A program made the translations under genes and the position numbers. From positions 1 to 35,513 of the forward strand of contig CADBMG010000057.1 of the NCBI GenBank assembly GCA_902795745.1: a DNA stretch of 35,513 nucleotides. Direction: 5' to 3'. The DNA is from an uncultured Pseudomonadota bacterium (lineage in GTDB: Bacteria; Pseudomonadota; Alphaproteobacteria; RF32; CAG-239). The notes under the pieces are model-generated. The model ran no database searches, had not been told where the DNA came from, and worked only from the letters and a program-made list of their open reading frames with translations. Positions 11,314 through 14,322 of the stretch are shown one piece after another; position 1 is the first letter of the stretch, and each line of letters opens with the position of its first letter.

Positions 11314-11886
11314 GTGTTTGATGAAGATAATCTGTCAGATACATCACAAAAAAGTTCTTATAAGCGCAAGCCGCAGAAAAAAATTACACTGCAGCGGCTG
11401 AAAAATATCGCGTTATATTATCTTAAACGCTACGAATCTTCGGTTGAAAATCTGCGCGGCGTTTTGATGAGACGAGTTGACGCTTACTCTCGCGAAAATC
11501 CGCAGTGGAATAAAGCAGAGGCTTATCAATGGATTGAAGAGATTTTAGAAAATTTTGAGCGATTACATTACTTAGATGACAATCGGTTTACTCAAATAAA
11601 AGTTCGCAGTTATTTGAATGCCGGAAAACCGGCTCGCTACATTCAAGAAAAATTGCGACAAAAAGGAATAGATGCTGCCGCAATAGAGGCTGTTTTGCAA
11701 GAACAGGATTATAATCCCTTACAAATGGCTTTGAAGTTGGCTAAGCGTAAGAAAATAGGGCCATATCGCGAACAAAATTTACGTCGCGAGTATTGGCAAA
11801 AAGATATGGGAACGCTGATTCGTGCCGGATTTGATTATGATGTGGTGTGTCAAGTTTTGAATATGGATAAGGCAGAAGAGAAATAG
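11314..11886 (+). CDS. recX: RecX-like regulatory protein
   Basis: Helical-repeat protein of 190 aa with RecX-like segments (ALYYLKRYESSVENLRGVLMRR, RYIQEKLRQKGI). GTG start with AAGGAG 9 nt upstream. Confidence 0.65.
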   Translation: MFDEDNLSDTSQKSSYKRKPQKKITLQRLKNIALYYLKRYESSVENLRGVLMRRVDAYSRENPQWNKAEAYQWIEEILENFERLHYLDDNRFTQIKVRSYLNAGKPARYIQEKLRQKGIDAAAIEAVLQEQDYNPLQMALKLAKRKKIGPYREQNLRREYWQKDMGTLIRAGFDYDVVCQVLNMDKAEEK

Positions 11887-11929
11887 TTTTAAACAGACTT
11901 GTGTCTTAGCGCGATAACATTTATGATAC

Positions 11930-11958
11930 TTGACTTTAAAAGATTTTTTATTTAATCT
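11930..11958 (+). promoter_or_regulatory. Island promoter P1 (TTGACT-17 nt-TAATCT), with a perfect TATAAT further downstream at 11974-11979
   Basis: Hexamers read from the sequence. It is homologous to P2 at 12426. Confidence 0.5.
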
Positions 11959-12010
11959 CTGCCTCAGAAAATCTATAATTATAAAACATTAAACTTAATA
12001 TTATTAGAGT

Positions 12011-12355
12011 ATGGAAAAAACAAAACTTTTCAACTTGGCGGGAAAACCGGTAGAGTATGAAAGCTGGAAATTTGATGAAGCGGAAGTTCTTAAAGCCGCA
12101 GAGAAATTTTTCGGGTTTGCGGTAACGGCTTATCCCTGCTTTTTATCAAAAGACAGTGTTTGGAGAGAGTACGAATTAGGATGGACATTTGACCAGCCCG
12201 ATAACCCGAAAGGGAAAAGGTTTATGGTCGGTTTTCTGGGTTTTGATACGGGATTTAAAAAGTATGGTTTTTCCAAATCCGTTCGACCTTGCAACGGCTT
12301 AACCTTTATGGGATGTACCATTGCTCTTGAAAAAGGAAAAATTGTTTTAAAGTAA
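12011..12355 (+). CDS. Hypothetical protein (114 aa), no recognisable motif
   Basis: ORF with a balanced, globular-looking composition. It is bracketed by P1 and terminator T1, which begins 6 nt after the stop. Confidence 0.6.
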   Translation: MEKTKLFNLAGKPVEYESWKFDEAEVLKAAEKFFGFAVTAYPCFLSKDSVWREYELGWTFDQPDNPKGKRFMVGFLGFDTGFKKYGFSKSVRPCNGLTFMGCTIALEKGKIVLK

Positions 12356-12360
12356 CCTTG

Positions 12361-12398
12361 TCCCCCGCCGCTTAACCGCCGCGAGGGATTTTTGTTGT
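12361..12398 (+). terminator. Intrinsic terminator T1
   Basis: GC-rich imperfect hairpin TCCCCCGCCGC-TTAACC-GCCGCGAGGGA, followed by TTTTTGTTG. Confidence 0.65.
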
Positions 12399-12425
12399 CA
12401 TGAAATTTTTTTTGTAAAAAAATAC

Positions 12426-12455
12426 TTGACTTTTGTCTATGGGGGGGGGTAAACT
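12426..12455 (+). promoter_or_regulatory. Island promoter P2 (TTGACT-18 nt-TAAACT) with a G9 homopolymer (12441-12449) inside the spacer
   Basis: Read directly from the sequence. It is paralogous to P1, where the spacer is 17 nt and has no G tract. Confidence 0.55.
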
Positions 12456-12520
12456 CTGAGCATAAAATCAAATTATAATGTTTTTTATTATTTTTATTAT
12501 TAAGAACCTCACGACAAGGC

Positions 12521-13426
12521 GTGAGTAAATGTTTGCTTATGAATATAAAAGGACAGCTTGATTCGGTGAGCCTCAAACAGTTTGGAGTTCCCGAAAATTT
12601 TGAGCATTTGTTTGACGATGTTTATCAGGGGGAAGACGGTGGTATTTACATTGCTCAGGCAAATATAGTCTCTGTTCCGTCGATGCATCTGCTCTCGAAA
12701 GGTGGCAAAGCCTACCCCATTCGCAATGCGCCGGAAATTACTGCAGAGATAGTCGAATTGCACAAGCAACTCTACACTCCGACACAAGCCGGCGAAAGAC
12801 TGAAAATTGCTGTGGGTGCCGCTTATCACCAAAATGAGAATGCTCGTTTCAAATTTCTCATTGAAAAGCAGTATCACCTTGCCATACCGGGAATTGTACC
12901 TGACGATTATTCGTTTGAGAAAGCTTACGAATATTTGGTGTTTGCTCCAAACTTCAACACCGTTTGCTCCGATGCGATTTCTGTTGAGAAAGGCGGTGCT
13001 TCCATCAAGGCCTTGTTTGCTAGCGGCCGTCTGTTGGTTGCAAGTAAAGATTGTTACGAGGCTATCGACTTTGTACCGATTTTCGAAACCACTGACGGTA
13101 AGACTATCTTCTGGGTCGGAGGCAAAGAACTTGCTCTGGCTTCTATAGTTTTCAACCGGCTGTGTTTCAGCCATTTGGGAACTTTCAAGAAGTTCACGCA
13201 AACAGCTGTAAACAATCTCATTGAAGTGAGGAATAAAGATCATTTTAACTTGTATCATCTGGGATCAACCATTGAATTTGTGGCGTGCGCGCCCTTTGAA
13301 TACGGGTTTGAAATTGATGTTGCTACCGGCAAGGTGGTTTGTTACTCTGCATATAGCTGTGACGGAATGAATGAATTCAGCAGAACCTTCCTCTTTGAAG
13401 GCGGAGAATATAAAATGAGCCTATGA
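12521..13426 (+). CDS. Hypothetical protein (301 aa from GTG 12521, or 295 aa from ATG 12539), no recognisable motif
   Basis: Long ORF downstream of P2 with a globular composition. Sampled lines are G+C-richer than sampled housekeeping genes. The plus strand is favoured over the antisense ORF by the promoter/terminator orientation. Confidence 0.65.
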   Translation: MSKCLLMNIKGQLDSVSLKQFGVPENFEHLFDDVYQGEDGGIYIAQANIVSVPSMHLLSKGGKAYPIRNAPEITAEIVELHKQLYTPTQAGERLKIAVGAAYHQNENARFKFLIEKQYHLAIPGIVPDDYSFEKAYEYLVFAPNFNTVCSDAISVEKGGASIKALFASGRLLVASKDCYEAIDFVPIFETTDGKTIFWVGGKELALASIVFNRLCFSHLGTFKKFTQTAVNNLIEVRNKDHFNLYHLGSTIEFVACAPFEYGFEIDVATGKVVCYSAYSCDGMNEFSRTFLFEGGEYKMSL

Positions 13427-13551
13427 GTAATGAAATTACCATCAAGCAAATGTGCAATAATCTGGATACATTGAGCGATTGTGGTTACGCGCTTTTGACT
13501 GAAAAGTCCAATGTTGTCAGAGCTGACAATTATTTGAAGTTATACTTCTAA
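13423..13551 (+). CDS. Untracked 42-aa ORF (MSNEITIKQMCNNLDTLSDCGYALLTEKSNVVRADNYLKLYF), translationally coupled
   Basis: Its ATG overlaps the upstream TGA (ATGA at 13423-13426). The ORF exactly fills the gap to terminator T2 and ends 26 nt before the hairpin. Confidence 0.4.
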   Translation: MSNEITIKQMCNNLDTLSDCGYALLTEKSNVVRADNYLKLYF

Positions 13552-13576
13552 TCTACGGCTTTATCAGCATTTATGC

Positions 13577-13616
13577 TCCCCTTACAGCCTAACCGCTGTA
13601 GGGGATTTTTTGTTGC
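13577..13616 (+). terminator. Intrinsic terminator T2 (paralogue of T1)
   Basis: CCCCT(T)ACAGC-CTAACC-GCTGTAGGGG is a 10-bp stem with one bulge, followed by T6 and GTTG. Confidence 0.75.
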
Positions 13617-13812
13617 TATAAATAAAAATAATTGAAATTTAAGGGATTCAATGTTATAGCTGGCTAAAATAAATCAAAAGAGCAATTTTAACATGGAAAA
13701 GAACGTAAAATATCTGCATTGGCACAGTTTTTGGGATAGTTTCATTTTATTTTATATTTATTAATTTGAGGACCCGGTCAAAATAAGCCTCGTTAAATAT
13801 TCCGGTTGTAGT

Positions 13813-14241
13813 ATGAATAAGTATGATGCGTTAGATTATGCTATGCAGAAGAATAAAGTATGGTGGAATGGCATGCTGGTTGCAACATTTTTATCTATGG
13901 TTTTTCTTACTCTGGCCTTTTTTTCCGGAGCAGGAACTGCGGCTAGCGATATATATGCCGGAAGACAGCCTGAAATATCTATGTTCACTGATGTGTGCTT
14001 TTTCGTCGGTGCATTGGATGCCATTTGTGCACTCATATACTTTGTTATATGGTGTAAGAGGATAACTTCTGACATGTCTTGCAAAGATACAGAGGACTTT
14101 GAAAGATACAAAGAAGATGTTCGCAAAGGTAAATACGGCAAAAGCGCAATTGTATATGAAGAGTCTACTATGGATGAGATCTTAGATCCAGAACGTTTCA
14201 AGCCTCATAATTGGAAAGAACGTTGGTTCGGATTTTTGTAA
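13813..14241 (+). CDS. Hypothetical 2-TM membrane protein (142 aa) with a charged C-terminal tail
   Basis: Two hydrophobic helices (MLVATFLSMVFLTLAFFSGAG and VCFFVGALDAICALIYFVIW), then a K/E/D-rich tail. No clear SD. Confidence 0.5.
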   Translation: MNKYDALDYAMQKNKVWWNGMLVATFLSMVFLTLAFFSGAGTAASDIYAGRQPEISMFTDVCFFVGALDAICALIYFVIWCKRITSDMSCKDTEDFERYKEDVRKGKYGKSAIVYEESTMDEILDPERFKPHNWKERWFGFL

Positions 14242-14252
14242 TATGGCAAATT

Positions 14253-14284
14253 AAAAGCTCTGATTTTATATCAGAGCTTTTTGT
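14253..14284. terminator. Bidirectional intrinsic terminator
   Basis: AAAAGCTCTGA/TCAGAGCTTTT is a perfect 11-bp stem flanked by an A-run and a T-run, between convergent genes. Confidence 0.8.
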
Positions 14285-14322
14285 ATATGTTTTTAGTTTT
14301 ATTGCCATTATTTGATTATTTT

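Follow-up and report, generated by a model that had tools for sequence, protein, structure and literature searches.

Putative promoter-leader modules reused upstream of orphan genes in an uncultured genus of Alphaproteobacteria

An earlier note on contig CADBMG010000057.1 of an uncultured alphaproteobacterium (35,513 nucleotides, which we call the window) drew attention to two stretches of noncoding DNA just downstream of recX, 496 bp apart. We refer to the stretch upstream of a gene for a 114-amino-acid (114-aa) protein as m1 and to the one upstream of a 301-aa gene as m2. Each is probably a self-contained module, a sigma-70-type promoter joined to an AU-rich leader without a Shine-Dalgarno (SD) site, and the two come from different families, which recur across one genus before many unrelated, lineage-specific orphan genes. 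The sequence comparisons support reuse of the promoter together with its 5′ untranslated region (5′UTR) on orphan-gene cassettes. The source is a metagenome-assembled genome (MAG) of 1.19 Mb with 38.8% G+C, 87% complete and in 152 contigs, of which the window is contig C57.

We propose that an A/T-rich upstream tract, a TTGACT −35 box, a spacer of 17 nt (m1) or 18 nt (m2), and a TAnnnT −10 box (TAATCT and TAAACT, respectively) would be used by the sigma-70 holoenzyme, and that transcription would begin at a conserved CA about 7 to 8 nt past the −10 box. The resulting 5′UTR, AU-rich, essentially unstructured, and SD-less, is predicted to start A(G/U)AAAAUC..UAUAAU and to end GCUUAUG or AGUAUG. 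Such a leader, lacking both structure and an SD site, would fit ribosome loading of the S1 or standby type, and we suggest that it recruits ribosomes in this way. The families occur across one gut and rumen genus of Alphaproteobacteria, on mostly Pfam-less cassettes of one or a few genes closed by conserved terminator hairpins, and may have spread by recombination at short conserved segments.

Two modules and their families

The elements of the two modules are as follows.

11926 to 11937, plus strand: extended −35 region of m1, ATACTTGACTTT, an exact 12-mer repeat that holds the −35 hexamer TTGACT (11930 to 11935)
11936 to 11958, plus strand: 17-nt spacer of m1 with a T6 tract, then the −10 hexamer TAATCT (11953 to 11958), from family alignment A1
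11966 to 12010, plus strand: predicted 5′UTR of m1, beginning AGAAAATCTATAATTATAAA, AU-rich and without an SD site, from a profile and homologous copies
12405 to 12455, plus strand: m2 promoter, from the G-tract profile, with an A/T tract, TACTTGACT, the −35 box (12426 to 12431), an 18-nt spacer, a G9 run (12441 to 12449), and the −10 box TAAACT (12450 to 12455)
12462 to 12538, plus strand: predicted 5′UTR of m2, beginning AUAAAAUCAAAUUAUAAU, AU-rich onward and containing a hairpin, from the leader-plus-hairpin profile
12508 to 12525, plus strand: conserved 5′UTR hairpin CTCACG / ACAAGG / CGTGAG, from covariation

The m1 promoter, TTGACT-17-TAATCT, is of the sigma-70 type as we defined it (a −35 box near TTGACA, a spacer of 16 to 18 nt, and TAnnnT). 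Its start is predicted at A11966, in the CA dinucleotide 8 nt past the −10 box, and its leader RNA is unstructured (minimum free energy, −2.5 kcal/mol; z = +0.33). We built an nhmmer profile from nine copies taken only from five other genomes. Its best match in this genome was m1 (11924 to 12015, E = 5e-7), which it covered in full, the −35 box and the ATG included, and it did not match m2. BLAST found full-length copies, 72 to 80% identical, in other genomes (79.8% over 84 nt in G050), and m1 was matched at E ≤ 0.01 in 33 of the 49 other genomes of the genus. Within this genome the nearest relatives of m1 are on contigs C26 and C66; m2 is not among them. These matches show m1 to be a member of a promoter-plus-5′UTR family of about 100 nt, which we call the T-tract family.

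Sixteen T-tract modules precede nine protein families that are unrelated by BLASTP. The homology runs through the start context GCTTATG and sometimes into the first codons (MEKT, MERT), and the leader core is nearly invariant across the family. In the alignment, TAnnnT is kept at the 17-nt spacing in all members while the middle −10 bases vary, as would be expected if the −10 hexamer is functional.

The m2 promoter, TTGACT-18-TAAACT, is also of the sigma-70 type, with a spacer that ends in G9, and would start transcription at A12462. Its leader has no SD site and is unstructured save for one hairpin. Two profiles, each built from copies in other genomes only, matched m2 in separate parts: a G-tract-promoter profile of six copies matched 12406 to 12458 (E = 6e-14), and a leader-plus-hairpin profile of 13 copies matched 12451 to 12541 (E = 9e-13). 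Neither found a second comparable match in this genome. Copies of the promoter in G011, G034, and G010 are 91 to 96% identical, reaching 96% over 45 to 47 nt, and a full-length homologue of m2 in G005 is 76% identical over about 155 nt (E = 4e-25). Its make-up is mosaic: the promoter comes from one family, which we call "G-tract," and the leader from another, the "hairpin leader" family.

Homologues of the 301-aa protein retain the leader and hairpin behind three types of promoter: the G-tract type in this genome, CTTGCT..TCTAAAAT in G003, G009, G018, and G034, and TTGACA-N17-TATAGT in G051. The G-tract promoter is found in turn ahead of other leaders and other cargo. Together, the three promoter types on a retained leader and the G-tract promoter on other leaders show that promoter and leader parts are combined independently, the breakpoint between them lying close to the predicted start site. 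The length of the G tract differs among species in otherwise near-identical promoters (G9, CG9, G8, G3AG4, G5, and the interrupted GGAGGATGG).

The m2 hairpin occurs in 12 copies from nine genomes, before several different genes. Across these copies 98.6% of the cells are paired and three of the six pairs show compensatory changes, a level reached by none of 500 shuffles. Its loop holds AAGG, 17 to 19 nt ahead of the ATG, so this motif is displayed rather than sequestered. A normal SD site would have to lie closer to the ATG.

Two further observations concern the m2 promoter. G7-type spacer tracts are present in four more promoters of this genome (contigs C1, C15, C80, and C108), and positions 12389 to 12440 gave a weak blastn match to a cattle Microviridae genome, MG945518 (82% over 52 nt, E = 4e-3).

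Relationship of m1 to m2 and the class they represent

The two modules had been described as paralogous on the basis of shared strings, all of which we confirmed. In m1 these are ATACTTGACTTT (11926 to 11937), CTCTG (11957 to 11961), CA (11965 to 11966), AAAATC (11968 to 11973), and TATAAT (11974 to 11979); in m2 they are ATACTTGACTTT (12422 to 12433), CTCTG (12454 to 12458), CA (12461 to 12462), AAAATC (12464 to 12469), and TATAAT (12474 to 12479). The downstream 114-aa and 301-aa proteins showed no similarity to each other, as had been reported. The −10 box ends within CTCTG, and 7 to 8 nt past that box comes the CA, the likely −1/+1 position. If so, AAAATC and TATAAT would be the first 8 to 18 nt of the transcript and TATAAT would not be the −10 box.

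We then asked whether one module could have been copied recently from the other, or both from a local ancestor, and set before a new gene. The exact 12-mer ATACTTGACTTT in two modules so close together speaks for this, as does the stretch from the −10 box to the leader core, the only part in which the pair ranks high (7th) among the 171 pairs of same-class modules in this genome. In addition, the m1 −35 flank is closer to the G-tract family than to the T-tract relatives of m1 (TTGACTCYGA), which could reflect local gene conversion. However, the 12-mer is the only exact repeat that the modules share, and blastn-short reported nothing beyond it (E = 6.4). With at most one mismatch it has two matches in the window against 0.28 expected, a number reached in 5 of 100 shuffles; its three exact genome-wide copies all lie at promoters of the m1/m2 class. 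A global alignment gave about 39 identities in 67 columns (about 58%). The collinear similarity of some 55 nt put forward in the earlier note was not above chance outside the 12-mer (shuffle P = 0.095 without the −35 box), and over its full length the pair ranked only 69th of the 171, or 99th without the −35 box, about average for the class. Each module is also far closer to relatives in other genomes than to its neighbor. Direct paralogy therefore seems very improbable, and we read the likeness of m1 and m2 as a class signature rather than as a sign that one derives from the other. The idea of cassette-like reuse survives at the level of families, since both modules precede unrelated genes in many genomes of the genus, but not for m1 and m2 as copies of a single module.

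The architecture common to m1 and m2 is a TTGAC-type −35 box, a spacer of 17 to 18 nt, TAnnnT, CA, and an AU-rich leader, AGAAAAT..TATAAT, without an SD site. We searched for this class with the pattern TTGACN-N16-18-TANNNT-N8-22-ATTATWAW. It occurred at 18 sites in this genome. The counts were 2 to 20 in each of 18 genomes of the same genus, 0 to 4 per genome for the reversed pattern used as a control, and 0 to 2 in 11 genomes from other families of the class Alphaproteobacteria, where the pattern is essentially absent. Downstream of TTGAC boxes, motifs of the ATTATAAT or ATTATTAA type pile up 40 to 44 nt from the start of the −35 box. The leader motif lies a median of 14 nt past the −10 box (interquartile range [IQR], 13 to 16), yet anywhere from 1 to 120 nt ahead of the start codon.

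Could the pattern simply be that of any strong promoter of this organism, housekeeping genes included? CTTGAC is an oriented −35 signal genome-wide, and both CTTGAC and AAGGAG are enriched in the sense orientation upstream of genes in this genome. The A tract and the TAC-TTGMYT −35 region are also seen in the promoters of ferredoxin (AAAAAAATACTTGCTT) and of a tRNA on contig C98 (AAAAAAATACTTGACC), and to this extent the concern raised in the earlier note, that the module might be a generic consensus, was borne out. It did not extend to the leader: that of ferredoxin has a GGAG SD site and no TATAAT core. We scored 51 genes with a good promoter (TTGAC[AT]-N16-18-TAnnnT) for the leader motif and for an SD site, with the following result.

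Leader motif present, SD site absent: 17 genes
Leader motif absent, SD site present: 12 genes
Both present: 1 gene
Neither present: 21 genes

The leader motif and the SD site are thus nearly mutually exclusive. Of 19 leader-class genes only two, for a C26 peptidase and an endonuclease I, had a Pfam family above the cutoff, compared with 6 of 10 SD-class genes (MnmE, FabD, GrpE, L21, a porin, and a MORN protein; Fisher P = 0.009). The SD-type promoters of MnmE, FabD, GrpE, L21, and the porin lack the leader motif, and the profile E values of 1e-7 to 1e-14 over 50 to 90 nt go far beyond a −35/−10 consensus. A generic promoter is consequently an improbable explanation, and the m1/m2 leader class is not the housekeeping consensus.

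Several points weigh against the view that these are reused expression modules. The gene sets compared above are small (19 leader-class and 10 SD-class genes) and were chosen by our own regular expressions and rough open reading frame (ORF) calls, and copy numbers from an 87%-complete MAG in 152 contigs are lower bounds. The start sites, promoter use, and expression of m1 and m2 are all predicted from sequence, and recombination is a presumed route of spread. Finally, the leader TATAAT or TATAATTATA could alternatively act as an operator or pause signal, or as an additional −10 box.

The last of these points leads to a reading in which the leader core is a DNA signal that defines a regulon, either an operator for a genus-specific repressor or silencer or a −10-like sigma-70 pause element near +25. 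The core is placed relative to the promoter and not to the start codon, and it hardly varies among T-tract modules. It forms a perfect palindrome of 10 bp in m1, TATAATTATA, and a palindrome of 8 bp in m2, ATTATAAT; tight promoter spacing and palindromes are what an operator or a site of sigma-dependent pausing might show. Moreover, sigma-dependent pauses are known to arise at −10-like elements that lie early in the transcribed region (PMC3326312). Against this, the commoner class variant, ATTATTAA, is no palindrome, palindromes often occur by chance in sequence made up of A and T only, and no candidate regulator was identified. We regard such a signal as possible but doubtful. It would be compatible with reused promoter-leader modules, and the operator or pause and the S1 or standby readings do not appear to be mutually exclusive.

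A second recurrent leader without an SD site, "..AATTATTTAAATAT-ATG", was seen behind consensus TTGACA promoters at C41:4485, C78:18326, C125:966, and C37:2103. Three of its cargo proteins were tested, and none had a Pfam family.

Terminators, mobility, and comparison with known systems

Both transcription units, that of the 114-aa gene and that of the 301-aa gene, end in a hairpin terminator.

12362 to 12393, plus strand: terminator hairpin T1, CCCCCGCCGC-TTAACC-GCCGCGAGGG plus a T run, which closes cassette 1 (folds at −14.8 kcal/mol, z = −2.9)
13578 to 13611, plus strand: terminator hairpin T2, found by a terminator scan, which closes cassette 2 downstream of a 42-aa ORF (folds at −17.7 kcal/mol, z = −4.7)

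T2 is 79% identical to T1 over 24 nt. T1 occurs many times in a genome, in copies 95 to 100% identical. The stretch that contains T1 was matched in all 50 genus genomes, T1 copies making up most of the matches listed. In some relatives cassettes stand in tandem, so that the T run of a T1-like terminator abuts the next TTGACT. This junction occurred 16 times, in 8 of 50 genomes and in one orientation only. The arrays are short, of one to four cassettes, and are scattered among housekeeping genes. The stem of T1 is conserved with two fixed mismatches and its loop is variable; T1 also terminates housekeeping genes such as ssb.

These repeats raise the question of whether the modules are parts of a miniature mobile element, a transposon-like repeat that brings a promoter and a terminator along when it inserts beside genes. 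They lie between genes in multiple, strongly conserved copies, and T1 reaches 100% identity between species. The T1-to-TTGACT junction keeps a single orientation wherever it recurs, and MAG contigs break near such repeats. However, we found no terminal inverted repeats or target duplications around the modules, and the homology reaches the cargo gene and a few codons inside it, which is ill suited to an insertion element. A miniature inverted-repeat transposable element (MITE) or Correia-like element was rejected on the first of these grounds, and a repeat search of 11860 to 13660 gave only short AT-rich chance pairs. A system of repetitive extragenic palindromes (REPs) and REP-associated tyrosine transposases (RAYTs) was likewise rejected for T1, as this genome has no Y1 transposase (PF01797) and neither do 31 of 50 genus genomes, among them most of those with the T1-TTGACT junction. 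A phage origin was not supported either: the T1 pattern had no exact match in IMG/VR, a phage collection gave a single weak Microviridae match for 11890 to 12545, and no PHROGs family was found for ten cargo proteins. Spread of the modules by a transposon-like element thus appears unlikely, and we hold such an element to be quite improbable as their source.

The closest parallel to the reused modules proposed here is found in the putative mobile promoters, or promoter reuse, described by Matus-Garcia, Nijveen, and van Passel in 2012 (commentary, PMC3575422) and defined by at least 80% identity over at least 50 nt upstream. As in those cases, similar upstream sequences lie before nonhomologous genes, within the genome and across species, and they are not known insertion sequence (IS) elements, tRNAs, or Rfam families; we found no Rfam match, no terminal inverted repeats, and no phage-family matches of the cargo. 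The m1-m2 pair falls short of the identity threshold, and the families, compared across genomes, reach it or lie on its border. In contrast to putative mobile promoters, the modules here would cover the whole 5′UTR up to and slightly into the coding sequence, are mosaics whose promoter and leader assort independently, and are tied to Pfam-less, SD-less genes and a conserved terminator. Whole-5′UTR modules, mosaic structure, the link to SD-less orphan genes, and the conserved terminator would be what is new beside known promoter reuse. Correia elements, ERIC, and REPIN (PMC3575422) are also multicopy intergenic repeats that give promoters and/or terminators to their neighbors, but the modules here lack terminal inverted repeats, target duplications, and a consistent Y1/RAYT transposase. 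The AU-rich leader would resemble S1-dependent enhancers of translation and the unstructured 5′ tails on which ribosomes stand by, where AU-rich RNA without structure takes the place of the SD site (PMC5934652; bioRxiv 10.1101/808485). Unlike in such systems, the AU-rich core here is conserved in sequence and positioned relative to the promoter.

The homopolymer runs in the spacers (G9 in m2 and T6 in m1) and the varying length of the G tract recall another kind of system. Phase-variable gene families, such as vlp of Mycoplasma hyorhinis, have a conserved promoter-leader with a homopolymer tract in the spacer between −35 and −10, before divergent genes. There the cargo is one family of surface proteins, whereas here it is many unrelated proteins, and the tract variation we observed is between species only. 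Tandem, same-strand, one-gene orphan cassettes with repeated intergenic sequence are also known from integrons and, in gut bacteria, from the recombinase-associated orphan-immunity arrays (rAID-1) of Bacteroidales. Unlike those, each cassette here has its own promoter and terminator, and the arrays are short and scattered. In the regions and cassette arrays that we read, whose neighboring ORFs were not run against Pfam, no ORF of the size of a recombinase was noticed among the cassettes, and we recognized no attC-like site in the cassettes, for which no search with IntI or attC models was made.

The outlines of promoter reuse are known, but few cases are well resolved; whole modules, with mosaic breakpoints near the start site, can here be traced in about 50 species, all from one uncultured genus. 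The split in one genome between SD-bearing housekeeping genes and orphan genes with AU-rich leaders offers a testable handle on how newly acquired or newly born genes gain expression signals, and on whether bacteria may treat accessory genes as a class in their regulation or translation. As a tentative proposal, the genus may keep an "accessory-gene expression code." Orphan cassettes would sit between interchangeable 5′ modules (promoter families, an SD-less AU-rich leader whose TATAAT core, at about +10, is palindromic, and, optionally, a hairpin) and a conserved 3′ terminator. Their ends would act as integrase-free recombination handles, by which cassettes move from genome to genome, and as the target of one genus-specific regulator or mode of translation, set apart from the SD-bearing housekeeping genes.

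Cargo genes and locus

The modules precede two orphan genes on the same strand. The neighboring features are as follows.

11314 to 11886: recX, directly upstream of the m1/m2 locus
12011 to 12355, plus strand: cargo 1, the 114-aa orphan protein, without a family match
12539 to 13426, plus strand: cargo 2, an orphan protein of 295 aa from ATG 12539, placed by its start context (the 301-aa frame runs from GTG 12521 to 13426)
13423 to 13551: 42-aa ORF that overlaps the end of the 301-aa frame

We favor ATG 12539 over GTG 12521 because of the family-wide start context GCTTATGAA, which is conserved in alignments A1 and A3. For annotation, the module would in this way predict real start codons and flag real genes among the orphan ORFs of these MAGs.

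Neither cargo protein had a family in Pfam, PHROGs, PADLOC, or NCBIfam. No defense-system or NCBIfam family was found among the proteins of the island, and none of ten cargo proteins had a PHROGs family. The 114-aa protein matched only one cluster, 97% identical to the query, among 5.8 billion proteins, and otherwise has only weak relatives. A distant paralogue at C17:6001-6345 (30% identity over 91 aa) is followed by a hairpin terminator of its own and preceded by a different sequence, in which the module is missing. A single-sequence AlphaFold2 model of the 114-aa protein was poor (predicted local distance difference test [pLDDT] score, 44). Homologues of the 301-aa protein, 32 to 47% identical, are present in 8 of the 49 other genus genomes, and its family has 18 representatives among 1.84 billion proteins. 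Its AlphaFold2 model was confident (pLDDT, 80.9) and mostly beta, with no PDB neighbor above a template modeling score of 0.23.

By Hsp33, the nearest relatives of this MAG are MAGs of uncultured Alphaproteobacteria from rumen and gut samples (RUG, RGIG, and similar). The island genes were beside recX-hsp33 in none of 35 relatives (L001 to L035), so synteny yields no empty site. Downstream of recX no synteny was conserved in 15 relatives compared over 11887 to 14290, the region differing in every relative read, and in L004 the recX-hsp33 pair is inverted relative to P134/DPP3-like genes. The region 3′ of recX looks like a variable hotspot. No Rfam match reached the gathering score anywhere in the window, and the MAG has no 16S gene, which we sought for comparison of its 3′ end with the anti-SD sequence. 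An 11-nt inverted repeat, GCGATAACATT / AATGTTATAGC, at 11911 to 11921 and 13650 to 13660 flanks both cassettes and is probably due to chance in AT-rich DNA. Finally, a further repeat family, GTCATCCC...GGGAT, about 60 to 120 nt long and often in tandem, occupies intergenic positions in relatives (downstream of recX in L002 and L004, and also in L058 and L059).

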